Numbered from the stretch's first letter, positions 10,420 through 55,462 are shown. The stretch is DNA of 64,000 bases from an uncultured Fibrobacteraceae bacterium (GCA_964607825.1 CAZSNA010000001.1:23697-87696), one strand, 5' to 3'. Notes: generated from the sequence alone by a model not told the origin. Made by a program: numbers and translations.

Positions 10420-13108
10420 ATCTCAGCAGCACGACCTTTCGGGTCGGGGTGACGGCGCCGTCGGGCACCGAGAGGCGCAGCAGGTAGAGGCCGGCGGGCA
10501 GGCGGCGGCCGTCGTCGTCGCGACCGTCCCAGGATACGAGGTATGCGCCGTTCGGCAACCACCAGTTCCTCACGCGGCGGGCTCGGGCGTCGTAGGCGGA
10601 GAGGCGGGCGCCGATCGCTTCGGTGTGGACCTCGAGGAAGACCTCCCCCGCGCTGGGGTTGGGGCGCGGCAGGCCCAGGCTCAGCGCGGGTGGCGTAGCC
10701 AAGGCGCCCAGCAAGGCGCTGCGGGAGACCACCTCGCCGAGATCGATGCGGATGCGGCCACGGAGCAGGACCCGCGCGTCGCCGTAACCGTCGGGCAAGG
10801 CGAGCTGGGCGGCGGGGATCACCATGTCGTCGGCGGTCTGGCCCGCGGGCACGTCGCCGTCCCACACGGGACTCCAGGTGGCGCCGTTGTCCAGGCTCGC
10901 GTCGACCGAGATCCGCTCGGGCATCTCCCAGGGCCAGCTCAGGGCGACACCGCCCCGCGCCTCGTCCCAGGCGGCGGCGAAGGGCGAGCCCGGATCCGCG
11001 ACCAGATCCATCCGGCCGAGCAGCCATCCACGCCCCCGCCTGAGCCGGTCGCTGGCCAGCCGGAACTCGAGCCGGGTGCCGCCCGCCAGGTCTTCGGGGA
11101 AGACGAAGGTGTCCACGCGCCACACAGGGGCGTCGTCGTCGGTGAGGCCGCCGGGCGAGACGAAGGCCTCGCGGCCGTGCAGGGGATTCTCGACCGCGCC
11201 GTCCACGCGTCCGTCGTAGCCGCCGTCGGGGGTGAGCGTCGTGTAGTCGCCCTCGGGGTCGAGGTAGCTCACCAGGGCCCCGTCGCTGCCGGTCCCCGGC
11301 GTGAAGGCGTGGATGTCGACGGCGTGGATCAGGCGCAGGACCGAGCCCGGCTCGGGGATGAAGCGGGGCGAGGTCAGCCGGGCGTCGCCCAGGTTGGCGT
11401 AGAGCACGTCGGGCCAGTCGGAGCCGTCGCCGTGGGCGGTGGCCGTGCAGGCGAGCAGCGGCGCGTCGGGCAGCCCGGGGGCCGCCGCGGGGCTCCAGGC
11501 GAACCAGTGGGTGGTGCTGCCGATCGATGGCTCGGACCAGCCCGTCGCGAAGGGGTCGTCCAGGGCGAAGGGCTCGTCGGCGGGTTCCCAGACCCAGGTC
11601 CGCTCAACAGTCTCCAGCAGGGTCCCGTTCCGGAAGATCTGGACCGTGAATTCCGAGGCGTCGCCCGGTCCGGGCGTATCGCCGGGCTGCCAGACGATGG
11701 CCTCGGTCAGGATCCAGATGATGTGGTCGTCCCGCTCGAGAGACCGCTCGACCTGCAGGACGCCGGGGGCGAACCGCCCGAAGTCGTCGTAGTCGAGCTT
11801 GGTCACGATGACCGAGATCTCGTCGTCCCAGGCGGCATGGCCGGTCAGGACGATGTGGCAAGTGACCTCGCCGCCGTTGTCGATCATCGCGAAGTCGAGG
11901 TCGAAGGGGTTTCCGAGCAGGTCGTACATGAAGCTGTAGTCGTACGTGACGCCCTTGAACTCGAGTCGTGCCTCGGACGGACCCGCATACCCGTCGCTCG
12001 ACGGAGAAGAGTATGGACCGAACACGTCGCCGTCGCCGAAGAGGTCCTGCGGCCCGCCGGAGGTCTCCCCCGCGGCCACGTCGTCCACGCCGTCGGCCTC
12101 GACCAGGCGGACGCGCAGATGAGGGCTCGCCCCGGACGACACGGCGTCGTCCGGCACCGACTCGTCCACGTGCAGCACCTCGAAGCGGAGCTCCGGAAAG
12201 GCCGCGTCGTAGGGTGCGTCGTCGAAGCCTCCGCGCAGGCGCACCAGGAAGTACTCGCCGGGGTCGTCGGCGCTCGCGGGTATCCGGGTCACATGGCGTG
12301 GGGCGCGGATCACGGTGCCGGCGGTGCCGGACGACAGGACGGTCTCCTCGGCCCAGCCCAGTTCAAGCAGGCTGTAGGCGTCCGGCAGCGCGGCGCCGGT
12401 GCCGTCGCCCCGGCCCCAGGCCCCGGCGGCCATCAGGCTGACGGCGCCCAGGCCGCCGCGGCTGACGGCCGAACCGGGGTCGGCGGGCAGGTCCGTGTCG
12501 TAGCGGTCCTCGAGGCCGAGCAGGTGGCCCGTCTCGTGGGCCCACACGCCGGGTCCGCTGTGGAGGCTGGCGACGGCGTAGCTCTGGGCCTCGTGGCCGC
12601 CCTGGCGGTAGGGCTCCTCGAGGTAGAACTGCAGGGGCTCCACCCAGCCGTCGACGGGATCGTTCTCCAGGCCGGGCGCCGCATGGAGGATCAGGACGCC
12701 GTCGACGATCCCGTCGCCGTCGGCGTCGGCGGTCGCGAAGTCCAGCCCCGCCGCGTCGGCGCCGGCGATGGCCTCGGCCGCCAGGGCGCGGGTGCGCACC
12801 ACGCTGTGCGGGTTGTAGCGGTCCGAATACCAGGAGGTCTCCTCGACCAGATGGACCAGGGGCGCCAGGGTCACCCGCAGCACATCGCTGCGCCCGCTGG
12901 CGGCGTAGAAGTAGCGCTCGAGGGTCTCGGCGCCGAGGCCGGCCACCCGCGGCGTCAGGTCGCGGGCGGGATCCCAGTCCACGGGCAGACGCCGGTCGGC
13001 GAAATCGACGGGGATCACCAGCAGACGGAACAGGGGGCCGCTCTTGGCGGGGTCGGTGAAGGCCGTCCGCATGGCGTCGCGGCGCTCCGCCCGGCGCTCG
13101 CTCTGCAC
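10418..13108 (-). CDS. Immune-inhibitor-A-like M6 zinc metalloprotease with a type-A T9SS C-terminal sorting domain; the N-terminus is probably mis-called (see finding)
   Basis: M6 N-domain (LLVIPVDFAD) and HEXXH in VWAHETGHLLGLEDRYD. C-terminus has PNPSAGEVFLEV...YLVSWDGRDDDGRRLPAGLYLLRL...RKVVLLR (Por-secretion-tail-like). The track start is a GTG with no signal peptide. Confidence 0.75.
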   Translation of the reverse strand: MQSERRAERRDAMRTAFTDPAKSGPLFRLLVIPVDFADRRLPVDWDPARDLTPRVAGLGAETLERYFYAASGRSDVLRVTLAPLVHLVEETSWYSDRYNPHSVVRTRALAAEAIAGADAAGLDFATADADGDGIVDGVLILHAAPGLENDPVDGWVEPLQFYLEEPYRQGGHEAQSYAVASLHSGPGVWAHETGHLLGLEDRYDTDLPADPGSAVSRGGLGAVSLMAAGAWGRGDGTGAALPDAYSLLELGWAEETVLSSGTAGTVIRAPRHVTRIPASADDPGEYFLVRLRGGFDDAPYDAAFPELRFEVLHVDESVPDDAVSSGASPHLRVRLVEADGVDDVAAGETSGGPQDLFGDGDVFGPYSSPSSDGYAGPSEARLEFKGVTYDYSFMYDLLGNPFDLDFAMIDNGGEVTCHIVLTGHAAWDDEISVIVTKLDYDDFGRFAPGVLQVERSLERDDHIIWILTEAIVWQPGDTPGPGDASEFTVQIFRNGTLLETVERTWVWEPADEPFALDDPFATGWSEPSIGSTTHWFAWSPAAAPGLPDAPLLACTATAHGDGSDWPDVLYANLGDARLTSPRFIPEPGSVLRLIHAVDIHAFTPGTGSDGALVSYLDPEGDYTTLTPDGGYDGRVDGAVENPLHGREAFVSPGGLTDDDAPVWRVDTFVFPEDLAGGTRLEFRLASDRLRRGRGWLLGRMDLVADPGSPFAAAWDEARGGVALSWPWEMPERISVDASLDNGATWSPVWDGDVPAGQTADDMVIPAAQLALPDGYGDARVLLRGRIRIDLGEVVSRSALLGALATPPALSLGLPRPNPSAGEVFLEVHTEAIGARLSAYDARARRVRNWWLPNGAYLVSWDGRDDDGRRLPAGLYLLRLSVPDGAVTPTRKVVLLR

Positions 13109-24162: not shown

Positions 24163-25743
24163 CTAACCCAGTCCGTACTTCTTGAGTTTCCGATAGAGCG
24201 TGCGCTCGCTGATGCCCAGGCGTTCGGCCGCCAGGCGACGCTTTCCGCCGGTCGCCCGCAGGGCCTGTTCGATCAGCGCGTGCTCGGCGCTCTCCAGGTC
24301 GCCGTCGCCGGCGACGGGTTCCGTCGAGTAGCCGGCCTCGCCGGCGAAGGTGTCCACGACGCGGCCGTCGAAACCCACCGGTCCGCCCACGGGACCGTCG
24401 ACCGACAGGGCCGCCTTGATCCGCTTCAGGTCCTCCCGCATCTCCAGCAGGGTGGCCATGATCAGTTCGGTCTCCCGCCCCGCCGTCATGGGGCCCACGG
24501 GCACCGGCAGCCGGTCCGCCCGGCCGGGCGCCCGGCCCGTGAGGATCTCCTCGGGCAGGTCCGCGGTCTCGATCATGCCGGTCTGCTTGAAGACGGCCAT
24601 CGACCGGATCGCGTTGCGGAGCTCACGCACGTTGCCGGGCCAGGGATAGGACGTGAGCAGATCCAGCGCCGGGCGGGCGATGCCGCGCAGGGAGAAGCCG
24701 TGCTCGCCGTTCTCCTGCTCCAGGAAGGTCCGGGCCAGGATGGGGACGTCCTCAGGCCGGTCGCGCAGCGGCGGCGTGGGGATGACCACCACGCGCAGAC
24801 GGTAGTAGAGGTCCTGGCGGAAGCGCCCGGCCTCCACCTCGGCGGCCAGGTCGCGATGGGTGGCCGCCACCAGGCGGATATCGCTGCGCTCGGTGCGGGT
24901 GCCGCCCACGGGCGTGAACTCCCCCGTCTCCAGGGCGCGCAGGAAGCGGGTCTGCATGGCCAGGGGCAGCTCGGCCACCTCGTCCAGGAAGAGGGTGCCC
25001 CCGTCCGCGCGCTTGAAGACGCCGTCGTGACGGCTCACCGCGCCGGTGAAGGCGCCCTTCTCGTGACCGAAGAGCTCGCTCTCCAGGACGCCCTCGCTCA
25101 GGGCGCCGCAGTTGAGGCTGACGAAGGGCTTGTCGGCGCGGCGGGAATGGTGATGGAGGGCGCGGGCGACCAGCTCCTTGCCGGTGCCGCTCTCCCCGAG
25201 CACGAGCACGTTCACGTCCAGGGGGGCCGCCTGGGCGATCAGGGCGATCATCTGGTTGACCGCGCGCGAGCGGCCGGCGATGCCGCTGCGCTGGCGCACC
25301 TCGCGCAGCTTGAGCAGCCGCTCCACCTCCAGCCGCAGCTCGTCCGCGCCCACGTTGGGCGCGAGCCGCCGCAGGGCGCCGCGATGGGGCTCGTCCTGCA
25401 GGCCCGACAGCACGGCCGGCGTGCCCAGCAGGATGAGGTCGGCGTCGCCCTTGAGGGTCAGGAACTTCTCGACCACGTGGCGGGAGCGGCCGAACTCGGC
25501 GGTGTCGAAGATCAGCAGGGCGCCCTCGCCCTCGGCGAAGAGGGCCAGGGCCTCCGAGGGGGAATCGTGGAGGCTGAGATCGACGCCCGGCAGGTGCCAG
25601 TCGGCGACGGTCTTGTAGAGGGCGGGTCTGCGTCCCAGGAGCGCGACGACGTGCGACACGGAAGGTCCTCCTGCTATTCTGTCAGACGATATGACATGCG
25701 AGCGCTCGGCGAGTGCGCGGCCAATCCGCTGATACGATAGCAT
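24163..25743 (-). CDS. fleQ: Sigma54-dependent transcriptional activator, FleQ/FlrA-like (degenerate N-terminal receiver-like domain, AAA+ sigma54-interaction domain, C-terminal Fis-type HTH)
   Basis: Walker A GESGTGKELVARALH, GAFTGA motif (EKGAFTGA), HTH GGKRRLAAERLGISERTLYRKLKKYG. N-terminal ~140 aa lacks the DD/phospho-acceptor pattern. Sits at the edge of the flagellar cluster. Confidence 0.75.
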   Translation of the reverse strand: MLSYQRIGRALAERSHVISSDRIAGGPSVSHVVALLGRRPALYKTVADWHLPGVDLSLHDSPSEALALFAEGEGALLIFDTAEFGRSRHVVEKFLTLKGDADLILLGTPAVLSGLQDEPHRGALRRLAPNVGADELRLEVERLLKLREVRQRSGIAGRSRAVNQMIALIAQAAPLDVNVLVLGESGTGKELVARALHHHSRRADKPFVSLNCGALSEGVLESELFGHEKGAFTGAVSRHDGVFKRADGGTLFLDEVAELPLAMQTRFLRALETGEFTPVGGTRTERSDIRLVAATHRDLAAEVEAGRFRQDLYYRLRVVVIPTPPLRDRPEDVPILARTFLEQENGEHGFSLRGIARPALDLLTSYPWPGNVRELRNAIRSMAVFKQTGMIETADLPEEILTGRAPGRADRLPVPVGPMTAGRETELIMATLLEMREDLKRIKAALSVDGPVGGPVGFDGRVVDTFAGEAGYSTEPVAGDGDLESAEHALIEQALRATGGKRRLAAERLGISERTLYRKLKKYGLG

Positions 25744-27612: not shown

Positions 27613-27627
27613 AGCAGTTTCCGTGCC
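27613..27627 (-). promoter_or_regulatory. Candidate sigma54 promoter upstream of fliA (GGCACG-N5-TGCT on the minus strand)
   Basis: Reverse complement gGGCACGgaaacTGCTg satisfies GG-N10-GC with a strong -24 element. About 40 nt upstream of the fliA ATG. Confidence 0.35.
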
Positions 27628-27632
27628 CGTCG

Positions 27633-27983
27633 TCATGGGGTCGCAGCCTCTTCGGCCGCCTTCTCCTCCGCCTCGCCGATGAGCTGCTTCTTGCGCTCTT
27701 CCTTGCGCCGGTCGCGCTCGGCCTGACGTTCGGCTTCCGCCTTCAGGCGCGTCTCTTCCTGCTCCTGCTGCTTGCGAAGTATCCGCTCGTGGTCCTCGCG
27801 CACCCACTCGTCGTGGATGCCGGCCCTGAAGACCAGGCTCAGGAGCGATCCCACCAGGTAGAAGGCGAAGTAGGCGATGGCCGCCCGCTTGAGCGTGGGC
27901 AGCGCGCCGAAGTCGCGCAGCAGCGCGTGGAGGATCGTGATGAGGGCCGCCCCCATGGCGGCGCTGTTGACGAACATCCGCAA
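27633..27983 (-). CDS. Hypothetical 116-aa protein: two predicted TM helices plus a K/E/R/Q-rich charged C-terminal tail. Occupies the slot where flhG/fleN normally lies
   Basis: MRMFVNSAAMGAALITILHALL…AYFAFYLVGSLLSLVF then …RKQQEQEETRLKAEAERQAERDRRKEERKKQ…. Fits exactly between flhF and fliA. Confidence 0.45.
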   Translation of the reverse strand: MRMFVNSAAMGAALITILHALLRDFGALPTLKRAAIAYFAFYLVGSLLSLVFRAGIHDEWVREDHERILRKQQEQEETRLKAEAERQAERDRRKEERKKQLIGEAEEKAAEEAATP

Positions 27984-28001
27984 GGGTCTCCTCCTTCAGG
28001 C

Positions 28002-29123
28002 TCAGCGGCTCTCCGCGGCCCGGACCGCGTCGACGCCGAGGATGCGCTCCACGAGGTCCGCGGCGTCGGGAATGACGGGGTGCGACCCCGGCCACTCGCC
28101 GCCGGCGACCAGCGACACGGCCATGGGAGCCGAGAGCAGCACGTCGACCAGCTTGCCCGGACCCGCCGTACGGTCCAGCCGCGTCAGGGACAGCCAGTCG
28201 CAGTTCCAGCCCCGCGCCTCGCTCCAGGCGCGCTCGCGGGCGGGGGTGTCGATATCCAGGGGCAGGACCAGGTGGCGGTGCACGTTCTCCAGGCCCGCCA
28301 GCATGTCCCGGAGGTCGGGATCGGACATGACGTCGCCGGTATGGGCCGGCGTGTCGATCAGCACGACGTCGTAGGCGGCGAAGATCTCGAGCCCGGCGGC
28401 GAGATGGGCCGCGTCCTTGAGGATGGCGGCGTCGTAGCCGTGGGCGGTGGCCTCCTCCCGGAAGCGCTCGATCTCGCCGGCGTGGCGCGGCGCGTAGGTC
28501 AGCACCAGGGCGCGATGACCCAGATCCTTCAGGCGCGCGGCCGTGGCGAGCACCAGGTCGGTCTTGCCCGCGCCCGGCCCCCCCAGGAAGAGATGGCATC
28601 CGGCCAGCGAGGCCCAGTCCCCGCCGCTGGTGCGGAGCTGGTCGCGCAGATGCCGCTCGGCCGTATGGGGCCGCCGGCCGCCGGTCTCGGCCAGGTAGAG
28701 GCGGCGCAGGAGGCGGACCGCGGGCAACGAGGCGCCGGTGGCCAGGAGCCGCTTGGCCAGGGGGTAGTCGTCGAAGCCGGTCTCGCGTTCCGCGCGTTCG
28801 GCGGCCTCGCGCTTCACGAGCGTCTCCACCATGGTCTCGATCCGCTCGACCTCGGCGCGGATGGCCTCGGCGGTGCGGGCGGGATCGGGACGCGGCTGCG
28901 GCGGCGTCGATGCGATCGGCGTCTCCCCCGGCGCCGGGCAGACGCTCACCTCGATGAACCGCTCGTCGCCGCGGGTCACGCTGCGCGTCTCGATGATGCA
29001 GGCGTCTTCACCGAACTCCCTGCGAGCCCCGGCGAGGGCGGCGCGGAGGGTCCGGCCGCGGATCTTGTGGACCACGGGGTCCAGGATCGCGGCGCCGGTC
29101 TCAGGCGTTGGCTTGCTGCTCAT
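28002..29123 (-). CDS. flhF: Flagellar biosynthesis SRP-type GTPase FlhF
   Basis: G1 LFLGGPGAGKTDLVLATAARL, G3 DTPAH, N-terminal B-domain-like region. Immediately after flhA. Confidence 0.85.
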   Translation of the reverse strand: MSSKPTPETGAAILDPVVHKIRGRTLRAALAGARREFGEDACIIETRSVTRGDERFIEVSVCPAPGETPIASTPPQPRPDPARTAEAIRAEVERIETMVETLVKREAAERAERETGFDDYPLAKRLLATGASLPAVRLLRRLYLAETGGRRPHTAERHLRDQLRTSGGDWASLAGCHLFLGGPGAGKTDLVLATAARLKDLGHRALVLTYAPRHAGEIERFREEATAHGYDAAILKDAAHLAAGLEIFAAYDVVLIDTPAHTGDVMSDPDLRDMLAGLENVHRHLVLPLDIDTPARERAWSEARGWNCDWLSLTRLDRTAGPGKLVDVLLSAPMAVSLVAGGEWPGSHPVIPDAADLVERILGVDAVRAAESR

Positions 29124-31215
29124 GTTGCACTCCCTGTAAGGAGACGGTTCCCGCGGACTGGACCTTGGTCTGGGCGGTCACCTCGGTGTAGCCCATGACC
29201 GGCAGGGTCGGGAACGTGGGTTCGATGAGTCGTTTGACGAACAGCCGCAGGGGCGTCGGCAGCAGCAGCACCGGCGGACGGCCCCGGGCGTAGACCTTCT
29301 GCAGGGTTCGTTCCAGCTGCTCCAGGAAGGACTGGGCCAGCAGCGGATCCAGCACCACCGCGCCGGCGCGCTCCGATTCGTGGACGGCCTGGCCGAGGCG
29401 CTGTTCGAGCTCCGGATGCAGGGTGACGGCGTAGACGTTCCCGTCGGGTTCCACGTAGAGGCGGCTGACGGTCCGCCGCAGCGCCTCGCGAACCTTCTCG
29501 ACCAGGTAGTCGGGACCGGCCTTGGCCTCCACGTGGTTGGCCAGCGTCTCCAGGATGGTGACGACGTCCTTGATGGGCACCCGCTCGTGCAGCAGCCCCT
29601 TGAGCACGTTGTGCAGGGTGTTGACGGGCACCTTGTCGGGGATCAGGTCCTCGATCAGGGCCGGCGCGAATTCGCGCACCGACTCGCACATGTCCTTCAC
29701 GTCCTGCCGCGAGAGCAGCTCGTCGGCGTGGGCGCGGATGGTCTCGCTCAGGTGGGTCGCCAGCACGGCGGTGGGCTCCACGACGGTGTAGCCCTCCATC
29801 TCGGCGGCGGCCTTGCGCGCGGGGTCGATCCAGACGGCGGGCAGCTGGAAGGCCGGCTCGACGGTCTCGAGGCCCTCGATCCGCTCCCCGCTCGTGTTGC
29901 CGGTGCTCATGGCCAGCAGGCGCCCCGGCTGCAGCTCGGCACGGTTGATCTCCACGCCCTTGAGCTTCAGCACGTAGGCGTTGGCCTCGAGCTGGAGGTT
30001 GTCCCGCACGCGGATGGGCTGGATGACCAGCCCCAGCTCGGAGCTGATCTGCTTGCGGATGTTGGTGATGCGCACCAGCAGGTCGCCGCCGCGCGACTCG
30101 TCCACCATGGGCAGCAGGCCGTAGCCCAGCTCCAGCTCCAGGGCGTCGGTCACGTAGAGCTCGCGGGTCAGGGACTCCTGCTCCGTCTCGGCGGGCGTGG
30201 CCGCCTCCTGCGCGGCCTGCTCGGCCGCGTCCTGGCGCTTCATGCGCTCGACGCGGCCGGCCACGATCCGTCCCGCCAGCGCGAACACGCCCGCGAGGCT
30301 CAGGAAGGGCATGGTGGGCAGACCGGGAATGAGGCCGAATACGGCCAGTGATCCCGCGGCCAGATACACGGCCTTGGGCTGGCGGAAGATCTGCAGCGTC
30401 AGGGCCTGGCCCAGGTTGAGCTTGCCGCTGGAGCGGGTGACCACCATGCCGGCGGCGGTCGAGACCAGCAGGGCGGGGATCTGGCTGACCAGGCCGTCGC
30501 CGACGGTCAGGATGGTGAACTGCCGCAGGGCCTCGCCGGCGGACAGGCCCATCTGGAGCATGCCCACCACGAAGCCGCCGATGATGTTGATCAGGGTGAT
30601 CACGATGCCGGCGATGGCATCGCCGCGGACGAACTTGCTGGCGCCGTCCATGGCGCCGAAGAACTCGGCCTCCGAGGCCACCTCGGCCCGACGCTCCCGG
30701 GCCTGGGCCTCGGTGATCAGGCCGGCGTTGAGGTCGGCGTCGACGGCCATCTGCTTGCCGGGCATGGCGTCCAGGGTGAAACGGGCGGCCACCTCGGCGA
30801 TCCGGCCCGAACCCTTGGTGATCACCACGAACTGGACGATCACCAGGATGGCGAAAACTATGACACCGATGACATAATTCCCGCCGATCACGAAGTCGCC
30901 GAAACTGGCGATCACCTTGCCGGCCGCGCCCTTGGAGAGGATCAGACGCGTCGAGGCCACGTTCAGGGCGAGCCTGTAGAGGGTCACCATCAGCAGCAGC
31001 GAGGGGAAGCTGGAGAAGTGGAGGGGCTCTTTCAGGTACAGGGCCACCAGCAGGACGACCACCGCGAAGGCGATGTTGAAAGTGATCAAAAGGTCCAGGA
31101 CGATGGGATTTACGGGCATGATCATCAGACCGATGACCGCCACCACCGCCAGGGCGCTCAGCACGTTGCTATTGGCCAGGATCAGATCCCGGTCGATGCC
31201 CTTGGTCCCTTCCAC
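29101..31215 (-). CDS. flhA: Flagellar export apparatus protein FlhA
   Basis: 704 aa; N-terminal 8-TM domain (…FGDFVIGGNYVIGVIVFAILVIVQFVVITKGSGRIAEVAARFTLDAMPGKQMAVDADL…) and large cytoplasmic C-domain. Confidence 0.95.
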   Translation of the reverse strand: MEGTKGIDRDLILANSNVLSALAVVAVIGLMIMPVNPIVLDLLITFNIAFAVVVLLVALYLKEPLHFSSFPSLLLMVTLYRLALNVASTRLILSKGAAGKVIASFGDFVIGGNYVIGVIVFAILVIVQFVVITKGSGRIAEVAARFTLDAMPGKQMAVDADLNAGLITEAQARERRAEVASEAEFFGAMDGASKFVRGDAIAGIVITLINIIGGFVVGMLQMGLSAGEALRQFTILTVGDGLVSQIPALLVSTAAGMVVTRSSGKLNLGQALTLQIFRQPKAVYLAAGSLAVFGLIPGLPTMPFLSLAGVFALAGRIVAGRVERMKRQDAAEQAAQEAATPAETEQESLTRELYVTDALELELGYGLLPMVDESRGGDLLVRITNIRKQISSELGLVIQPIRVRDNLQLEANAYVLKLKGVEINRAELQPGRLLAMSTGNTSGERIEGLETVEPAFQLPAVWIDPARKAAAEMEGYTVVEPTAVLATHLSETIRAHADELLSRQDVKDMCESVREFAPALIEDLIPDKVPVNTLHNVLKGLLHERVPIKDVVTILETLANHVEAKAGPDYLVEKVREALRRTVSRLYVEPDGNVYAVTLHPELEQRLGQAVHESERAGAVVLDPLLAQSFLEQLERTLQKVYARGRPPVLLLPTPLRLFVKRLIEPTFPTLPVMGYTEVTAQTKVQSAGTVSLQGVQHEQQANA

Positions 31216-31229
31216 TCACTCGCCTCCTC

Positions 31230-32288
31230 TCAGGATCGCTTGAGCCGGTAGACGTAGGCCAGCACCTCGGCCACGGCCTGGTACAGGTCGTCCGGTATGA
31301 AGCCGCCCACCTTCACGACCTTATGCAGCGCCCGTGCCAGGGGCTTGTTCTCGATCACCGGGACGCGATGTTCCCGCGCGATGCGCCGGATGACGGCGGC
31401 CAGCTCGTCGGCGCCCTTGGCCACCACCGTGGGCGCCACGTCGCCCGGGGCGTAGCGCAGGGCCACCGCGAAGTGGGTCGGGTTGGTGACCACCACGTCG
31501 GCCCGGGGCACGTCGGCCAGCATGCGCTTGCGCATGGCCTCGAGCTGGATGGCGCGGATACGGGCCTTGATCTGCGGATCGCCCTCGGTGTCCTTGTGCT
31601 CCTCCTTGACCTCCTGCAGGGTCATCTTCAGCCGCTGCTCGTGCTGCCACTTCTGGAAGGTCCAGTCGATGACCGCCAGCAGGGCCAGGAAGGCGATCAG
31701 CCGATAGGCCAGCACGGCCACCGACTTGATGCCCAGGGTGATGATCCCCTCGATCGGCAGCTCGGCCGAGCCGGGCATGTCCTCCCCCAGCCCCCGGACC
31801 GTCCACCAGGCCAGCACGCCGATCAGGGTGATCTTCAGCAGGTTCTTGAAGAGGTCGAAGGCCGCGCGCTTGCCGAAGATGTTCTTGATGCCGTTGATCG
31901 GGTTGATGTTCTCCACCCGGAAGGCCAGGGCGCTGATGTTGACCTTCCACCCCACCTGCAGGACGTTGCCCAGGAACCCGAAGATCAGGATGCCGAGCAT
32001 CAGCGGCGCCAGGGCGGCCACGATCACGCCCACGTTGGCGCGGGCGATCTCCACCAGGGCGTAGGGGCTCTCGAGCAGGAAGATGTGCGCCTCGCGGAAC
32101 AGGTAGCGGCTGTTGTCGCCCAGGACGTTGCGCATGTGGCGGGCGGCCACGAAGAGCAGGGAGAAGCCGGCCAGCAGCACCATGGCGCTGTTGACCTCCT
32201 GGCTCAACGCCACCTGACCCTTCTCGAGGGCCTTTTCGCGGCGTCTGGGTGTTGCTTGTTCCGTGCGTTCGCCGGCCGCGTCCGCCAT
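31230..32288 (-). CDS. flhB: Flagellar export apparatus protein FlhB
   Basis: 352 aa; 4 TM, NPTH autocleavage motif (VVTNPTHFAVALRY). Confidence 0.92.
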   Translation of the reverse strand: MADAAGERTEQATPRRREKALEKGQVALSQEVNSAMVLLAGFSLLFVAARHMRNVLGDNSRYLFREAHIFLLESPYALVEIARANVGVIVAALAPLMLGILIFGFLGNVLQVGWKVNISALAFRVENINPINGIKNIFGKRAAFDLFKNLLKITLIGVLAWWTVRGLGEDMPGSAELPIEGIITLGIKSVAVLAYRLIAFLALLAVIDWTFQKWQHEQRLKMTLQEVKEEHKDTEGDPQIKARIRAIQLEAMRKRMLADVPRADVVVTNPTHFAVALRYAPGDVAPTVVAKGADELAAVIRRIAREHRVPVIENKPLARALHKVVKVGGFIPDDLYQAVAEVLAYVYRLKRS

Positions 32289-32336
32289 GACGTCTCACCT
32301 CCTCGGGGGCGCGCCGCTCCCGCGGCGGAAAGGGGA

Positions 32337-33122
32337 TCAGCCCTGGAGCGAGCCCAGCAGCAGGGCCAGCTCGTTCTCCATGCGCCCGACCACGGCGCCG
32401 AAGACCTGGTGGAAGAACGTGAGCGACACGCCCATGGCGGCCAGGCCCACCGCGATCTTGATGGGGAAGCCCACCACCAGGATGTTGATCTGGGGCACCG
32501 TCTTGACGATGAAGCCCATGGACACGCTCAGCAGCAGCAGCACCAGGATCACCGGCGCCGCCACGCGCAGCCCGATGGCGAAGAACTCGGCGAAGCGCTC
32601 CAGGGTCAGCCAGGTGGCGCCGCCCAGCTCCACCGGCGCGAAGGGCGGCACCAGCCGCGTGCTCTCCACCATGGCCGCCACCAGCGTGTGGTGCGCGTCC
32701 AGGGTGAAGAACAGCAGCACCGCCAGCAGGTAGTAGATGTTGGACAGCACCGTGTAGCGGCCGCCGGTCTGCGGGTCGAGGGTGTTGACCATGCCGAAGC
32801 CGATCTGCACGCCGATCACGGCGCCCGCGAAACGCACCGCCGCGAAGGGGATGCCCACCGAGAAGGCGATCAACGCGCCCACGCCCAGCGAACGCAGGCC
32901 CTCGGCGGCCAGTCCGCGCCAGCTCAGGTCCAGGGCGTCGGGGGACATCTCGGCGGCGATGGCCGGGGCGGTCGAGATGGCGAGACAGACCGCCAGGGCG
33001 ATCCGCCAGGTCGGGGGCACGGTGCGTCCGGCGAGCAGGGGCAGGAGGGCGGTCAGCATCGCGAGACGCAGGGTCAGGACCAGGCCCACGATCATCCAGG
33101 TCAGGTCGAGCTCGAACCCCAC
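32337..33122 (-). CDS. fliR: Flagellar export apparatus protein FliR
   Basis: 261-aa polytopic membrane protein between fliQ and flhB, FliR-like helices. Confidence 0.85.
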   Translation of the reverse strand: MGFELDLTWMIVGLVLTLRLAMLTALLPLLAGRTVPPTWRIALAVCLAISTAPAIAAEMSPDALDLSWRGLAAEGLRSLGVGALIAFSVGIPFAAVRFAGAVIGVQIGFGMVNTLDPQTGGRYTVLSNIYYLLAVLLFFTLDAHHTLVAAMVESTRLVPPFAPVELGGATWLTLERFAEFFAIGLRVAAPVILVLLLLSVSMGFIVKTVPQINILVVGFPIKIAVGLAAMGVSLTFFHQVFGAVVGRMENELALLLGSLQG

Positions 33123-33131
33123 GCCGTCCTC

Positions 33132-33395
33132 CTACATGGCGCCGATGCGCTCGAAGATGCCCATGGTGAAGGTGGTGAGCTGGTGGATGATCCAGGGCAG
33201 CGCCAGGATCATCACCACGAACACGGCCACGATCTTGGGCACGAAGGTCATGGTCATCTCGTTGATGTGGGTGGCCGCCTGGAAGATGCTGATGGTCAGA
33301 CCCACCAGCATGCCCGCGGCCAGCATCGGACCCGCCACCATCAGCGTGGTGCGCAGGGCGAGCTGTCCGAGTTCGACGACGGTTTCGGGTGTCAT
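33132..33395 (-). CDS. fliQ: Flagellar export apparatus protein FliQ
   Basis: 87 aa; LGQLALRTTLMVAGPMLAAGMLVGLTISIFQAATHINEMTMTFVPK. Confidence 0.9.
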   Translation of the reverse strand: MTPETVVELGQLALRTTLMVAGPMLAAGMLVGLTISIFQAATHINEMTMTFVPKIVAVFVVMILALPWIIHQLTTFTMGIFERIGAM

Positions 33396-33408: not shown

Positions 33409-34185
33409 TCAGCCGTTCTGGAAGGCCGTCACCAGCGAGCGCACGATCAGGTACCAGCCGTCCACCAGCACGAAGAGCAGCACCTTGAAGGGCAGGCTGA
33501 TCAGCACCGGCGGCAGCATCATCATGCCCATGGACATCAGGACCGACGCCACGACCATGTCGATGATCAGGAACGGCAGGAAGAGCACGAAGCCGATCTG
33601 GAAGGCCATCTTCAGCTCGCCCAGCACGAAGCTGGGCACCACGATCAGCAGGGAGAGCTCCGCGGGATCCTCGGGGGGATCCTGCCCCGTGAGCTCCAGG
33701 AACAGGGAGACGTCCTTCTCGCGCACCTGGCGGAGCATGAACTCCTTCAGGGGGCCCTGGGCGCGCTGCAGCGCCTCCCCCTGCTCGATCTCCTCGGCCA
33801 GGTAGGGCTGCAGGGCCTCGTCGTTGATCTGGGTGAAGACGGGGCTCATGATGATGAAGGTCAGGAACAGGGCCAGGCCGATGAGGATCTGGTTGGAGGG
33901 CATCTGGTTGGTGCCCATGGCCTGGCGCAGGAAGCCCAGCACGATGATGATGCGGGTGAAGCTGGTCAGCAGGATCAGGAGCGCCGGCGCCAGCGACAGC
34001 AGGGTCATCAGCAGGACGATCTCGACCGCCACGTCCAGGCGCGCGCCGCCGTCCATGTCCCCCAGCGAGAGGTTCACGGCGCCGGTCGCCGCGGGGGTCG
34101 CCGCGTCCTGGGCCTGGACCGGGGCGACGGCCGCCGCGAGCACGGTCAGGAGGCAGGCGATGATCTGGACGTGTCGTCGGGTCAA
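33409..34185 (-). CDS. fliP: Flagellar export apparatus protein FliP (with signal peptide)
   Basis: 258 aa; signal peptide then IVLLMTLLSLAPALLILLTSFTRIIIVLGFLRQAMGTNQMPSNQILIGLALFLTFIIMSPV. Confidence 0.92.
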   Translation of the reverse strand: MTRRHVQIIACLLTVLAAAVAPVQAQDAATPAATGAVNLSLGDMDGGARLDVAVEIVLLMTLLSLAPALLILLTSFTRIIIVLGFLRQAMGTNQMPSNQILIGLALFLTFIIMSPVFTQINDEALQPYLAEEIEQGEALQRAQGPLKEFMLRQVREKDVSLFLELTGQDPPEDPAELSLLIVVPSFVLGELKMAFQIGFVLFLPFLIIDMVVASVLMSMGMMMLPPVLISLPFKVLLFVLVDGWYLIVRSLVTAFQNG

Positions 34186-34249
34186 GACGCTTTCCTTGGT
34201 GCGGGCGGCTCGGGTCCCGGGCGTACCGAGAGGACGATCTGGCAGGACT

Positions 34250-34267
34250 CCGCAAGGCGCGTGCCAG
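34250..34267 (-). promoter_or_regulatory. Sigma54 promoter (cTGGCACG-cgcc-TTGCG on the minus strand) in the 175-nt fliO-fliP gap
   Basis: Direct reading of the reverse complement of ccgcaaggcgcgtgccagg. Near-perfect match to TGGCACG-N4-TTGCA. About 55 nt upstream of the fliP ATG. Confidence 0.6.
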
Positions 34268-34360
34268 GTGTGCGAGGCTTATATGGCGGTCGGATAGGGA
34301 GTTAGACGTGAGCGGGCGGGAAGGCCGGACGGCTTCCGTCCACGGCTGGCCAGGAACGCG

Positions 34361-34723
34361 TCAGCGCTTCAACAGGGCGCGCAGACGCTCCAGCCAGCCG
34401 CCCAGCGAGGGCGCGTCGGCGCCGGGCTGGTGCCGGGCGGGGTCGTAGGGCTCCTCCTCCAGGAGCGCCATGGAGGACTCGCTCCGGTAGAGGGTGTAGA
34501 CCCGCTCGCCGCAGCGCAGGTATTCCAGGCTGCGCCGCGGCCCCAGGGACTGGACGCGCAGCAGGGCGGCGTCCTCGGCGACGGCGCCCCTCTGCAGGCG
34601 TCCCACCAGCCTCAGGAACAGCACCAGCAGCGCGAAGACCAGCAGGAAGGCCCCGCCCAGCTTCCACCAGGAGGGGTCCTCGGGCCGGGCCGCGGCCGCC
34701 AGGAAGACCGGCAGGACGGGCAT
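34361..34723 (-). CDS. fliO: Flagellar protein FliO/FliZ-like (single TM, between fliN and fliP)
   Basis: 120 aa; N-terminal TM LGGAFLLVFALLVLFLRLV. Assigned by position and topology; weak sequence conservation is normal for FliO. Confidence 0.55.
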   Translation of the reverse strand: MPVLPVFLAAAARPEDPSWWKLGGAFLLVFALLVLFLRLVGRLQRGAVAEDAALLRVQSLGPRRSLEYLRCGERVYTLYRSESSMALLEEEPYDPARHQPGADAPSLGGWLERLRALLKR

Positions 34724-38356: not shown

Positions 38357-38583
38357 CTACTGGTCCTCGAACACGTTGCTCGGTCCGCCGCAGGGCACGG
38401 GATGGCTGCGCGACTGGCGCCGGTACTCGATGATCAGCCGCACCACCGCTTCCAGCTCCTCGCGGATCATGAGCTTGCGCCCGGTCGTCAGGCACAGGAG
38501 CGTGTCCGGCGTGCTCTCGATGAACTCCACCAGGTCGGCGTTGATCACCAGCCGGCTCCCGTTGAGTTTGGTCACGTTGATCA
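38357..38583 (-). CDS. flbD: Flagellar protein FlbD (75 aa). Only the last 75 codons of the 293-aa track ORF are real
   Basis: MINVTKLNGSRLVINADLVEFIESTPDTLLCLTTGRKLMIREELEAVVRLIIEYRR matches the FlbD family closely. The upstream part of the ORF is Arg/Gly-rich junk overlapping flgE in another frame. Confidence 0.75.
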
Positions 38584-38613
38584 TGTCATTCACTCCTGCG
38601 CCGCACGCGCGGG

Positions 38614-40710
38614 TTAGCGGATCATCGACACGACTTCCTGCAGGATCTGGTCCCCGGTGGAGATGACCTTGGCGTTGGCCTGGAAGGCCCTCTGGGCCAC
38701 CACCATGTTGGTCAGCTCCTGGGTCAGGTCCACGTTCGAGGTCTCCAGCACGCCGGACAGCACGTAGGAGCCGGTGTCGCCGCCCACGAAGCCGTACATG
38801 GCCTGGCCCGAGTTGCCGCTGGTGGTGAAGGTGTTGCCCTCGGAGCGGGTCAGACCCTGGTTGTTGGCGAAGCGCGCCACGCCGATCTGGGCCAAGGTCA
38901 GCACCGTGTCGTTGCTGAACCGGCCGATCACCAGGCCGTCCGTGTTGATCTCGTAGTCCAGCAGCTGGCCCACGGAATAGCCGTCGGTGATGGACTGGAC
39001 GCCGCCCGATGCGGCGTACTGGGTCAGGCCGTTGAACTCGCCGAACTGGCCGGCGTCGAGCTGGATCGTGAGGTCCTGGGCTCCCGCGTCGCCGGTCGGC
39101 TGGGGACGCAGGGACAGGCCGCCGGCGCCGTCGTCGTAGGTGAAGGACAGGATCTCGCCGGTGTCGGTGAAGCTGATGGTGCCCGAGCCGCCCTCGAGGA
39201 TCTCCTCGTCGCCCTCGGGCGAGGCCACCCAGGTCCACTCGTTGCGGCCCACGACCTTGGTGAAGGTGAACTGCAGGTTGTGCACGTCGCCCAGCGAGTC
39301 GTAGACCGCCGACGTCACCGTGTACTCGTCGCCGTCGGAGGCCGCCTGGAGCTCGGCGAAGTCGAAGGAGGTCTCGAGGATGGGGTTGACCTCCCCCGTC
39401 TCGCGGATGTCCACCTGGCCCAGGGCGTTGGCCAGGCCGACCTCCCCCTGCATCACGATCTCGCCGTCGCCGTTCAGGGACACCGGCTCGCTCGAGATGC
39501 CGAAGGCGATCTGCAGCCCCGTCAGCAGGTCGGCCATGGTCGTGGAGTCGTCCACGGCCAGGCTGTAGGAGGCGTCGGCGGTCTCGCCGATGGTGCCGCT
39601 GATGCTCAGGTTGGTGGTCGGGTTCGTCGGCGTCACGTTCAGGCCCAGGGACTGGCCGTCGCTGTTGTAGACGGCCGTCAGCAGGTCGGTGTCGGTGGCC
39701 GCGGCGCGCAGCTGGCCGGCCTCGCGGTCGGCGTCGTAGGTGGTGCCGGTCTCGGCGGGTCCGATGGACCCCGTGAAGCGGAAGCTCTGGTTGAAGTCGG
39801 CGCGGCTCGGCGCGGTGAGCAGGAGGTTCTGCAGGGTGACGGTGCCGCTGCCGTTGGTCAGTTCGAGGGCGCCGTCCGCGGACAGGGCCACGGTGATGTC
39901 GCCCGGGTTGAAACCGGGCTGGTTCTCGAGGGTGGTGACGATCCAGGCGCTCAGGTCGTCCAGGGTCGAACCGTCGGTGCCCACCACGAAGGCCGGCTCG
40001 GCGATCTGCGTGCTGCCGCCGTCGTCGACCATGCCGGTCAGGCTGATCTCGTCGCCCACGCTCAGGCCCATCAGGTCGCCGTTCTGGGCGTAGAGGGCGG
40101 TCAGGGCGTCGGTGCCCTCGGCCGCGGCCATGAAGTGGGCGGATTCCAGCAGCGAGGACTGGGCCTCGGCGGCCGCGTCCAGGTTGCCGTGGAGCTGCAG
40201 GCTGGTCGTCGCGCTGGCGGGGACGGTCTGGCTCGGGTCGATGAACAGGTCCTCGAACTGGCTGCCGGTGATGGCGCCCGTGTCGTCGGCCAGCAGGCCC
40301 TGCAGGCGCATGCCGGTCGAGGGATCGACCAGGTAGTTCTCGGCGTCGAGGCCGAAGGCGCCGGCGCGCGTGTAGTACTGGCTGCTGCCGTCGCTCAGGA
40401 CGAAGAAGCCGTCGCCCTGCAGCGCGAGGTCGTTGACCAGGCCGGTGTTCTGCGTGCCGCCCTGGGTGAAGCGGGCGTCGATGCTGCCGACGGTGGAGCC
40501 CAGGCCGATCTGCTGGGCGTTCATGCCGCCGCGACCGCCCGAGACGGGACGCTGGGCCGGACGCAGGGTCTGGCTCAGCATCTCGCGGAAGGTCACGCGC
40601 GAGGACTTGTACCCCACCGTGTTCGCGTTGGCGATGTTGTTGCCGATGACGTCCAGCTCGACGGCATTGGAATTGAGACCGGAGATGCCGGCATAGAGGG
40701 AACGAAGCAT
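38614..40710 (-). CDS. flgE: Flagellar hook protein FlgE (long form, 698 aa)
   Basis: N-terminal MLRSLYAGISGLNSNAVELDVIGNNIANANTVGYK and C-terminal VVAQRAFQANAKVISTGDQILQEVVSMIR rod/hook family termini. Confidence 0.9.
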   Translation of the reverse strand: MLRSLYAGISGLNSNAVELDVIGNNIANANTVGYKSSRVTFREMLSQTLRPAQRPVSGGRGGMNAQQIGLGSTVGSIDARFTQGGTQNTGLVNDLALQGDGFFVLSDGSSQYYTRAGAFGLDAENYLVDPSTGMRLQGLLADDTGAITGSQFEDLFIDPSQTVPASATTSLQLHGNLDAAAEAQSSLLESAHFMAAAEGTDALTALYAQNGDLMGLSVGDEISLTGMVDDGGSTQIAEPAFVVGTDGSTLDDLSAWIVTTLENQPGFNPGDITVALSADGALELTNGSGTVTLQNLLLTAPSRADFNQSFRFTGSIGPAETGTTYDADREAGQLRAAATDTDLLTAVYNSDGQSLGLNVTPTNPTTNLSISGTIGETADASYSLAVDDSTTMADLLTGLQIAFGISSEPVSLNGDGEIVMQGEVGLANALGQVDIRETGEVNPILETSFDFAELQAASDGDEYTVTSAVYDSLGDVHNLQFTFTKVVGRNEWTWVASPEGDEEILEGGSGTISFTDTGEILSFTYDDGAGGLSLRPQPTGDAGAQDLTIQLDAGQFGEFNGLTQYAASGGVQSITDGYSVGQLLDYEINTDGLVIGRFSNDTVLTLAQIGVARFANNQGLTRSEGNTFTTSGNSGQAMYGFVGGDTGSYVLSGVLETSNVDLTQELTNMVVAQRAFQANAKVISTGDQILQEVVSMIR

Positions 40711-50825: not shown

Positions 50826-50842
50826 TTCGCAATCGACATGCC
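50826..50842 (-). promoter_or_regulatory. Sigma54 promoter (aGGCATG-tcga-TTGCGa on the minus strand) upstream of the 355-aa gene
   Basis: Reverse complement of tcgcaatcgacatgcct. GG-N10-GC spacing is exact, with a good match to TGGCACG-N4-TTGCA. Confidence 0.5.
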
Positions 50843-50859
50843 TGCCGGGCGGCGGGCAC

Positions 50860-50887
50860 GAAAAACCGGGAGGCCAAGGGCCTCCCG
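50860..50887 (-). terminator. Rho-independent terminator after fleR (10-bp GC stem CCGGGAGGCC/GGCCTCCCGG, 3-nt loop, U5 tract on the minus strand)
   Basis: Plus strand reads aaaaaCCGGGAGGCCaagGGCCTCCCGG. 27-54 nt past the fleR stop. Confidence 0.75.
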
Positions 50888-50913: not shown

Positions 50914-52340
<1,427 letters not shown>

Positions 52341-52344
<4 letters not shown>

Positions 52345-54674
52345 GACATCTCCTGTTCCTGGGCGGCCGGTGCGGTCTCCTCGGAGTCCCGCAAGTCGGG
52401 CAACAAGATGGCGAAAATGGTGCCGTTCCCGTCGCAGTCGACGGAAATGCGGCCGGCGTGGGCCTTGACGATCTTGCGGCAGATGGACAAGCCCAGGCCC
52501 GTGCCTGAGTTCTTGGTCGTGTAGAAGGGACGGAAGATGCGGTCGCGGTCCGCGGGCGCCACGCCGGGCCCCTCGTCCGTGACCGCGAGACGGAAACCGG
52601 GGCGCACGCGGGACTCCCCGCTCACGGGGTCGTCCACCAGCAGGTCGTCCACGCGGGTCAGGGTGGCCGAGACGGTGCCGCCGGCGGGCGAGGCGTCCAC
52701 GGCGTTGAACAGCAGGTTCAGCACCACCTGCTTGAGCTGGGTGCCGTCGGCCGCGAGGGTCGCGCTCTCGCCGCGGGGCAGGTCGCGCCCCAGGCCCAGC
52801 CGCACGTCCTTGTCGTCGGCGCGGGGGCGCGCCAGCACCAGGCTGTCGCGCAGCAGGCGGTCGAGGTCCACGTGGCCGAGTTCGGGTTCGTAGGGGCGCA
52901 CGAACTGGAGCATGCGGGTGATGGTGTCGTTGATCCGGCCCACCTCGCCGGTGATCACGTCGATGTAGCGGCGGCGCGGGTCGTCGTCCTCCAGGTTGTC
53001 GCCGAGCAGTTCGGCCTGGGCGCTCAGGCCCATCAGCGGATTGCGGATCTCGTGGGCCAGGGCCGCCGACATCTCCACCAGGCTCTCCAGGGCGTCGGCG
53101 CGGCGGGTCTCCTGGGCCAGCCGCTTGACCGGGCGGAGGTCCTCCAGCACGACCACGCGCCAGAGCTCGTCGCGGGCGCGGCCCGGCATCAGGTGGGCCT
53201 GGACCATCACCGGGACCGCGGTGCCGTCCGCGCGCACGACCCGCCCCTCCCCGTAGAAGGGCTCGGGATCCTCGTGCTTGAAGGCGGCCAGGGCCGGCCC
53301 CTCCTGGTCCTCCAGGCGCAGCATGGCGTCCAGGAGCAGTTCCGGCAGACCCTCCAGGTGGAAGGTGTCGCGGCGGAAGAAGGCCGAGGTGGACCCGGTG
53401 TCGTCGGGGTGGCGACCGCGTCCGAGGGCCGTGTCGGGCTCCGTGATGATGCGCGGCGCTTGGGCGCGGCCGGTGACCAGTTCGCGGCCGCCCCGGTTGC
53501 AGAAGATGGTGCGGCCCAGGTCGTCCAGAACCCAGATGCCGCTGTCCACCGCCTCGAGCACCCGCGAATTGAAGGTGCCGAGCTCGCGCATGCGGTCGAG
53601 CATCTGGGCCGCCGCCACCTCCTCGGCCAGGATGATCTGGGCGGTGCGCAGGAAGGCGAGCTGGCCGCTGGTGGCCGTGCGCGGCTGGAAGTCCAGCAGC
53701 AGCAGGTAGCCGAGGCAGGCGTGCATGTGGTCCAGGGACAGGGCCGCCACCACGGGCAGCGTGTCGTCGCGCTCCGCTTCGGGTTCCAGGGTGATCACGA
53801 CGGGCTCGCCGGGATCCCCGTCCTCGCGCCGGCGTTCGGCCTCGAGACGGGTCAGCACCCGGTCCCAGCCCTCCTCGTTCCAGTGGAAGGTCTGGCGGGG
53901 CGCGAAGGGGGCGTCGGGCGCGGGACGCAGCACCAGGGCGGCGCCCTGGGCGCCCACGAAGTCGGCCATGGTGCCCAGGAGCGACTCGAGGGTGCTGTCC
54001 CAGTTGGGCGTGGTGCTCAGCTCGCGCACGATGGTGTAGAGCAGCGAGAGCTGGTCCATGTGCTCGGTCAGGGCCTGGTTGGCCTCTTCCAGGCGCAGGT
54101 GCGAACGGGCCAGATCGTCACCGGCGCGCACGAGTTCCACCTGCAGGCGTTGACGGTGCTCGAGCAGCCGCTCGGTGGTCTCCTGCTGGGCGGCCTCGAG
54201 ACGATCCGCCTCGTCGAAGACGGCCAGACGCGCGCCAACCCGCTGGAGCAGGTCTTCCCACGCCGCGTCGTCGCCCAGGGGGATCGCGTCGAAGAGGCCG
54301 GCGCGGAAGCAGGCCGGCAAGAGCAGGTCCTCGCTGCCGTCATGGAGCAGGACCGGCAAGGCGGCGGGGTTGATCACGCGCAGGGCCCGCACGAGTTCGG
54401 GCAGATCCGCGGCGGCGCGTCGTTCGCGCGTCAGGGGCAGGATCACGAGCATGGGCCGGGGCCCGTCGGACGCTCTCGCGCGCAAGTCCACGAGCAGATC
54501 GCTCGCCGCGGCGTGGAAGATCAACTCGTCGGTCGTGGCCGGAACCAGGTCGGTCCAGGCGGAATCCGCGACCACGAGAATGGGAAATCGATCCGGATCT
54601 CGATCTGAAAAACGAAGTGGCACGCCGCCCCCCGAGCGCTCGAGTCGTCGATCACTGGAACCGCTGTCGGACAA
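52341..54674 (-). CDS. fleS: Cytoplasmic sensor histidine kinase (FleS/FlrB-like) with a long N-terminal region (pseudo-receiver-like plus PAS/GAF-like). Apparently a TTG start
   Basis: HisKA H-box LAHEIRNPLMGLSAQAELL, HATPase_c N/G boxes (NLLFNAVDASPAGG…DEGPGV…GTGLGLSICRKIV). No TM helices seen. An in-frame TAA lies 9 codons upstream of the TTG. Confidence 0.8.
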
Positions 54675-54778
54675 GGAGTAACGGACAGACTGTAAGGTTT
54701 CTTACCAGACGCGGCAAGTCAACATCTATCTGAGTTGGGCAGGAAAAGAGACGTTTCGGTCGGTGGGAGCGCCCCGCT

Positions 54779-55153: not shown

Positions 55154-55254
55154 CTGGGCTTCGCTCCTGGGTCTCGTGGGTTCGGACTCGGAATCAGGGC
55201 CATGCTAGCAAGGCCGGGACCAGGCGACAAGGTCGGCGACGCTGCGTGTAGTGG

Positions 55255-55434: not shown

Positions 55435-55462
55435 TAAAGTTTCGCCCCCCCGCCGCCGATAC
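55435..55462 (+). promoter_or_regulatory. Sigma28 (FliA) promoter for fliC: TAAAGTTT-N12-GCCGATAc
   Basis: Direct reading of ctaaagtttcgcccccccgccgccgatacc. About 140-nt leader to the fliC ATG at 55611, with SD aggaaggag. Confidence 0.6.

Follow-up and report, generated by a model that had tools for sequence, protein, structure and literature searches.

What does the long interval between fliO and fliP carry, and does it divide this flagellar gene cluster into separately transcribed parts? The window, that is, the whole 64-kb stretch of DNA that was analysed, holds most of the cluster on its minus strand. NCBIfam and Pfam assignments gave the order flgJ, flgN, flgK, flgL, fliW and csrA, later flgM, a histidine kinase and a response-regulator activator, continuing with a 355-aa ORF (ORF355), a FlgN-like ORF, flgB, flgC, fliE, fliF, fliG, fliH, fliI and fliJ, and then an MgtE_N-like ORF, fliK, flgD, flgE, flbD, motA, motB, fliL, fliM, fliN and fliO, followed by a gap of 175 nt. 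On the 3' side of the gap lie fliP, fliQ, fliR, flhB, flhA, an flhF-like gene, a small ORF, fliA, two small ORFs and an orphan activator gene. The flagellin gene, fliD and fliS are on the plus strand, between csrA and flgM.

The initial annotation had singled out the fliO-fliP gap as unusually long within an otherwise tightly packed cluster, and both descriptions held. The gap (34186-34360, minus strand) is truly 175 nt long, as an in-frame stop keeps fliP from extending further 5', and it is the largest in the flgB-to-fliA run; from flgB to the activator gene 3' of fliA, the other genes are separated by at most 61 nt or overlap. An apparent gap of 292 nt between flgE and motA is filled by a 75-aa flbD gene (38357-38584, minus; PF06289 in relatives), which was hidden in the ORF listing as the end part of a spurious 293-aa ORF (38357-39238) because it shares its frame with a start codon inside flgE. 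The gap is bounded on the 5' side by fliO (34361-34723, minus; 120 aa), the last gene of the upstream unit. Its match to TIGR03500 is weak, and the position between fliN and fliP is taken by a small membrane protein in all relatives. On the other side is fliP (33409-34185, minus), which encodes a protein of 258 aa with a TTG start and a signal peptide (TIGR01103, E 1.8e-84). The genes fliQ, fliR, flhB, flhA, the flhF-like gene and the small ORF follow at spacings of 48 nt or less (27633-33395, minus) and likely form the remainder of its unit.

Within the gap, the coding (minus) strand carries a sigma-54 -24/-12 element, TGGCACGcgccTTGCG, at 34266..34251, with its GG at 34265-34264 and its GC at 34253-34252. 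The sequence cacaccTGGCACGcgccTTGCGgag (34266..34251, minus) matches 7/7 bases of TGGCACG and 4/4 of TTGC with the GG-N10-GC spacing, and TGGCACGcgccTTGC, at 34266..34252, matches all ten core bases of TGGCAC-N5-TTGC, so that the near-perfect sigma-54 element first reported here was borne out in core, spacing and strand. The sole deviation is a G after TTGC, where the consensus has A/T; this position is G or C in 12/12 of the loci compared below. The flanks of the element depart from the extended sigma-54 consensus, and the region 5' of it is not conserved. Flanking positions are reportedly weak in the sigma-54 consensus published by Barrios et al. in 1999.

The element is intergenic, on the strand of fliP, and 66 nt 5' of the fliP TTG. 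With the fixed geometry of sigma-54 promoters, in which the C of the GC (34252) is taken as -12, the predicted transcription start falls at ~34240 (34238-34242, minus), roughly 55 nt 5' of the fliP start codon and thus at the distance of ~55 nt originally given. The predicted fliP 5' leader (34186-34237, minus) carries a Shine-Dalgarno sequence, AAGGAAAG, at 34197-34190; the TTG start comes seven bases after it, and fliP is the first gene 3' of the predicted promoter. Most relatives also have a purine-rich, Shine-Dalgarno-like sequence (GGAAGGA, GGAGAAC or GGGAGAG) just 5' of the fliP start.

The exact pattern TGGCAC-N5-TTGC occurs a single time in the 64-kb window. When dinucleotide-preserving shuffles of the window (n = 100) were searched on both strands, 0.14 exact matches per 64 kb were found, with at least one match in 14 of the 100 shuffles; this rate corresponds to an expectation of ~2e-4 for the coding strand of the 175-nt gap. 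A sigma-54 matrix scan, which the initial annotation had proposed for the genome, was run over the window, on both strands, using a weight matrix built only from the sites of the 11 other loci. The fliP-gap site ranked first in the window at 17.8 bits, and random first-order windows gave a matrix maximum of 14.1 +/- 1.9, the highest being 20.1. Given that the whole-window significance of a lone site is modest by both measures, the case for the element rests on its position and its conservation.

Conservation was assessed at homologous loci from Krumholzibacteria-like MAGs and metagenomes, with a FliP identity of 66-81% and a GC content of 41-70%. Three of them, L001 (a Candidatus Krumholzibacteriia MAG), L002 (a low-GC MAG) and L081 (a metagenome contig, equally close), were the only close relatives among the GTDB species representatives and JGI metagenome contigs. 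Eight others, L164-L171, were reached through FliP homologues in a large protein collection, which holds many such homologues at 64-87% identity, some of them named Krumholzibacteriia. All twelve loci, the window included, have the same gene order and a long fliO-fliP gap (137-249 nt), and all twelve carry TGGCA[C/T]-N5-TTGC on the coding strand 5' of the fliP start. The distance from the motif to the fliP start, whether called or read (several starts are uncertain), is 16-98 nt in the relatives and 38-61 nt in 8/11. The outlying values, 98 nt in L170 and 16 nt in L171, both come from doubtful start calls; at L167 the motif lies inside a mis-called ATG start, and a TTG ~60 nt further on is the likely start.

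A MAFFT alignment covering four of the gaps misplaced the motif because the flanks are unrelated, and column identities were therefore taken from a motif-anchored comparison, as mean pairwise values. The mean for the ten core positions was 0.98, compared with 0.47 for the spacer and 0.26-0.28 for the flanks of 30 nt. Outside the -24/-12 core, the gap sequence is without conservation among the relatives.

A broader set of 157 fliP loci from many phyla was also searched. Only the loci of the three closest relatives and one from Marinimicrobia had the full TGGCAC-N5-TTGC 5' of fliP; five more loci had weaker matches with up to two mismatches, in which the full core is missing. Forward-strand matches were thus found in nine loci altogether, and a reverse-strand match in one. 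With strong matches limited to the close relatives and this one other locus, the element appears specific to the clade. The Marinimicrobia sequence, L004 (a Candidatus Neomarinimicrobiota SAG), has TGGCACAGAGTTTGCC at 5962-5977, at the extreme end of fliO and 24 nt 5' of the fliP ATG. It is the sole strong match beyond the Krumholzibacteria-like clade among the 157 loci, and may be a chance occurrence or a sign of an older arrangement.

As the motif is kept in all twelve loci examined, the fliO-fliP gap very probably contains a working promoter that depends on sigma-54 (RpoN), named PfliP here, and we put the probability of this reading at about 0.85. We infer that sigma-54 binds here, and likewise where transcription starts, how far it runs and which activator acts. 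At PfliP, sigma-54 RNA polymerase would bind TGGCACG-N4-TTGC (34266..34251) as a closed complex, and the DNA would open only on contact by an ATP-hydrolysing enhancer-binding protein. Transcription would then begin at ~34240, giving a leader of ~55 nt with the Shine-Dalgarno sequence and a transcript that would comprise fliP, fliQ, fliR, flhB and flhA, the genes of the flagellar export gate, together with the flhF-like gene. Most likely, PfliP would serve as an internal (nested) promoter and make transcription of the export gate separately controllable.

The gap may instead mark a true operon boundary, at which upstream transcription ends after fliO and fliPQR-flhBA depends wholly on PfliP. 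The gap is long and its length class is conserved (137-249 nt). In low-GC L002, a GGCCC-N5-GGGCC stem with a T-rich run behind it comes after the fliO stop, and stems of 8-11 bp are found past the fliO stop in L164, L169 and L170. The organism also uses canonical terminators elsewhere: GGGAGGCC-cttg-GCCTCCC with a T run, at 50886..50859 on the minus strand, stands 3' of the response-regulator gene. However, a scan for canonical terminators gave no same-strand site in the gap of the window, L002 or L168, the window hairpin GGACGG-aag-CCGTCC is just 6 bp long and has no T run, and the post-fliO hairpins are conserved neither in sequence nor in position. We therefore regard such a boundary as possible but doubtful. 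Since no canonical terminator follows fliO in the window, PfliP as an internal promoter is at least as likely as a real break in transcription at this point.

Could the element be a chance match, or a sigma-54 site that is not a promoter (a roadblock or a silent site), with fliP expressed by upstream read-through only? Non-productive and intragenic sigma-54 sites are reported for Salmonella in the available text of a regulon study (PMC3844500), and an exact match did arise somewhere in 14 of the 100 shuffled windows. Against this stands the presence of the motif in 12/12 loci, always in the equivalent intergenic position, in coding-strand orientation and a promoter-like distance from the start codon, over a 30-point range of GC content and between unconserved flanks; for a roadblock, such a position and orientation are not required. 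This explanation is very improbable.

Other contents of the gap were also considered, namely an sRNA, a structured leader, a small protein and a promoter of the sigma-70 or sigma-28 type, any of which would make the -24/-12 look-alike incidental. The unusual length of the gap would accommodate these, and there is an A/T-richer patch (ccatataag) ~20-30 nt 5' of the -24 element. No Rfam family matched the gap at gathering score or at E<=1, however, and its RNA fold was weaker than that of shuffles (z +1.42). A small ORF was rejected, the overlapping ORFs being out-of-frame artefacts of high GC content, and no sigma-70-like promoter was found on the coding strand of the gap in the window or in L002 and L168, both low-GC relatives. 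A sigma-28 candidate, TAAC-N13-GCCATATAA, was likewise rejected as a poor match by eye that is not conserved. With conservation among the relatives confined to the -24/-12 core, it is highly unlikely that any of these contents accounts for the gap.

We next looked for activator-binding sequence upstream of PfliP. Enhancers of sigma-54 promoters typically lie 80-150 bp upstream. Just 3' of the fliO stop, ~80 bp 5' of the -24 element, there is an imperfect dyad, TTCCTGGCCAGCCGTGGACGGAA (34334-34356, minus), and it is possible that this dyad is an activator site (enhancer) or, as RNA, a 3' hairpin. Only some relatives have the dyad, the dyad or box feature having been noted in the window, L164, L165, L168 and L170. 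A TGGCC(A)G box is present in 5-7/12 loci, 7-11 nt past the fliO stop in 5/12, at a frequency not above that of shuffles. When 8-mers were counted over the 12 gaps with one mismatch allowed, the best (CCTGGCCA and similar) occurred in 7/12 gaps, and shuffles gave 5-8. The sequence CTGGCCAG occurs twice in the window, which matches chance expectation.

Two sigma-54 activators had been proposed for this cluster, one described as FleQ-like and the other as FleR-like. Both are encoded in the window, each with a sigma-54 interaction domain (E 1e-65 to 1e-68). The first is an orphan activator of 526 aa (24163-25743, minus; PF00158, E 2.8e-68) with GAFTGA at residue 230 and intact Walker A and Walker B motifs. 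Its residues 1-145 have no Pfam match, so that the FleQ N-terminal domain (PF06490) was not found, and no FleQ/FlrA NCBIfam model matched; the term FleQ-like can thus stand as an analogy only. The gene occupies the same position in 5/8 of the relatives having that flank (L164-L168), and L169-L171 have an HDOD gene there instead.

The second activator is part of a histidine kinase/response-regulator pair (50914-54674, minus), whose layout is indeed of the FleS/FleR type. The kinase (52341-54674) adjoins the regulator (50914-52344) inside the flagellar cluster, and the regulator combines a receiver, a sigma-54 AAA+ domain (PF00158) and HTH_8. Its loop reads GAFTDA, not GAFTGA. GAFTDA or GSFTDA was seen in 101 of 120 regulator homologues and GAFTGA in none, the remaining 19 not being caught by the pattern; with a looser pattern, 102/102 regulator loops end in TDA. 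These counts identify GAFTDA/GSFTDA as a clade-wide loop variant, and GAFTDA is listed among the activation-compatible variants in the Desulfovibrio vulgaris regulome (PMC4641369). The pair was also found in two additional loci, L172, which belongs to the genome of L170, and L173.

The activator of PfliP would most likely be one of these two cluster-encoded proteins, the GAFTGA orphan or the kinase-coupled GAFTDA regulator. At L172, a more distant relative, genes for another kinase-like protein and another response-regulator activator are inserted between the FlgN-like gene and flgB (9352-11453), and an HDOD protein replaces the orphan activator 3' of fliA. Two activators per cluster seem to be a conserved theme, with types that vary. 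As for sigma-54 itself, no Sigma54 domain was found in the window ORFs scanned, and the window and 173 loci, translated in six frames, contained no RpoN-box peptide. From the activators and the several conserved -24/-12 sites, we infer that rpoN is present in the genome.

At least three conserved promoters of the sigma-54 type are predicted in the cluster: PfliP, one 5' of fliA and one 5' of the operon that begins upstream of flgB. A sigma-54-like element, GGGCACGgaaaCTGCT (27628..27613, minus), lies 38 nt 5' of the fliA start. Its counterparts, [T/G]GGCA[C/T]-N5-[C/A/G]TGC, were found in 9/9 loci, 34-40 nt 5' of the called ATG in eight of them; at L171 the distance is 78 nt, and an earlier ATG is probably the true start. 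Thus, fliA appears to have its own sigma-54 promoter, here PfliA. At the head of the upstream half, AGGCATGtcgaTTGCG (50843..50828, minus) ends 46 nt 5' of ORF355 and fronts the unit of ORF355, the FlgN-like ORF, flgB and the following genes to fliO, with the terminator at 50886..50859 on its 5' side. This head element is the third best matrix match in the window and is conserved as CGGCAC[A/G]-N4-TTGCG in L172 and L173 (3/3 loci with the window).

An intragenic candidate was also seen. TGGCACGggcgCTGCAT (31339..31323, minus) lies inside the 3' end of flhB, ~110 nt 5' of flhA, and overlaps the codons of the conserved FlhB peptide PLARALH. Within it, 7/10 loci retain GCA, a rare codon that accounts for 4-7% of Ala codons in the high-GC loci. 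Its retention hints that an intragenic sigma-54 promoter of flhA is under selection, an effect not separable from constraint on the protein.

These sites bear on the proposal that the cluster is split before fliP into at least two units, of which the export-gate half, from fliP to fliA, would be under sigma-54 control. The comparison strongly supports a sigma-54 promoter before fliP, with its element in 12/12 loci. Given the conserved fliA element and the candidate inside flhB, the proposed unit is probably nested rather than single. The upstream half also begins with a conserved sigma-54-like promoter, and control by sigma-54 would therefore not be particular to the export-gate half.

Further promoter-like sequences were found around the kinase, flgM and flagellin genes. 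Between flgM and the histidine kinase gene there is a sigma-70-like TTGCCG-N17-TACAGT (54689-54717, minus), part of which, TGGTAA...TACAGT, is conserved; the counterparts in L172 and L173 read TTGATT or TTGCAG, N17, and TACAGT or TACGAT. The cascade may be entered through the kinase/regulator pair under sigma-70 control. Ahead of the flagellin gene (55611-56450), a near-consensus sigma-28 (FliA)-like promoter, TAAAGTTT-N12-GCCGATAC, lies on the plus strand at 55435-55462. A deviant -24/-12-like site, TGGTCCCggccTTGCT (55207-55222, minus), ends 53 nt 5' of the flgM start and has counterparts in the same place, TGGTCTC-N4-TTGCT in L173 and AGGCACC-N4-TTGCA in L172. Taken together, the promoter-like sites suggest a hierarchy in which sigma-70 would drive the kinase/regulator pair, sigma-54 the structural genes and fliA, and FliA the flagellin gene.

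Between the flhF-like gene and fliA, no gene for an FlhG/FleN/MinD-type ATPase was found (27633-29123, minus). In its place is an ORF without a family assignment, 116 aa long in the window and 66-118 aa long in the relatives. The upstream neighbour itself matches FlhF weakly (E 3.9e-14, below the cut-off).

The nearest parallels to this arrangement are in known sigma-54 flagellar systems. The P. putida flagellar cluster has twelve sigma-54-type promoters, primary and internal, including PfliL (fliLMNOPQR-flhB), PflhA and PflhF (bioRxiv 10.1101/2021.08.29.457346). As is predicted for the window, -24/-12 promoters of the Pseudomonas FleQ/sigma-54 system drive export-apparatus genes within nested operons that have internal promoters; the available text of two sources also describes a cascade with FliA and flagellin at its end and a pair of activators, one of them kinase-coupled (bioRxiv 10.1101/2021.08.29.457346; PMC6424431). 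In contrast, no fliO-fliP promoter is described for Pseudomonas in the searched text of the first of these (bioRxiv 10.1101/2021.08.29.457346). The window further differs in its Bacillus/spirochaete-like collinear order, flgE-flbD-motAB-fliLMNOPQR-flhBA-flhF-fliA, in an orphan activator without a FleQ N-terminal domain match, and in having no FlhG/FleN-sized gene between flhF and fliA.

D. vulgaris has 19 sigma-54 flagellar operons and the regulators DVU1063 and DVU2894 (PMC4641369). Like the window, it has many flagellar -24/-12 promoters and two activators, its own being a two-component regulator and an FlrA/FleQ-like protein (PMC4641369). It tolerates non-canonical GAFTGA variants, including GAFTDA, and many of its flagellar sigma-54 promoters have no identifiable enhancer (PMC4641369). 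Unlike the window, it belongs to a different phylum and has a scattered gene layout, and its promoters are compared here through the description in the paper.

The export gate of the window lies itself behind a predicted sigma-54 promoter, and this sets the cluster apart from that of Campylobacter. There, the export-gate genes are sigma-70 early genes, and their product activates FlgSR. Vibrio, with FlrA/FlrBC, and Campylobacter and Helicobacter, with FlgSR, resemble the window in that sigma-54 and a kinase-coupled regulator control structural genes ahead of FliA-dependent flagellin, as far as the available text of one account goes (PMC7064773). Cross-phylum matrix surveys found sigma-54 promoters enriched for fliQ, fliR and flhB in Gammaproteobacteria and Desulfobacteria (PMC12316311).

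For Krumholzibacteriota, flagellar genes are recorded as present (PMC10936416). The literature searched held nothing on flagellar regulation in this phylum, and no paper pairing the phylum with sigma-54. Control of flagellar genes by sigma-54 is well known in Proteobacteria and Desulfobacterota, and PfliP leaves general concepts unchanged: the principle is already known, and what is new is the fliO-fliP placement in a Bacillus-like collinear cluster and the host lineage.

A more far-reaching idea, which we consider rather improbable, is that a collinear super-operon of the Bacillus type has been rewired into a nested chain of sigma-54 promoters, running from the head element through PfliP and the PLARALH codons of flhB to PfliA, with the two activators reading different promoters. 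If this were true, synthesis of the export gate would be controlled separately from the genes for rod, hook and switch, in a checkpoint layout differing from the Pseudomonas, Vibrio and Campylobacter hierarchies.

The orthologous -24/-12 sites described here would offer a clean training set for promoter models beyond Proteobacteria. Together with PfliA, the head promoter and the predicted promoters of the kinase/regulator pair (sigma-70-like) and of flagellin (sigma-28-like), PfliP would provide a testable first map of the flagellar hierarchy of this phylum.
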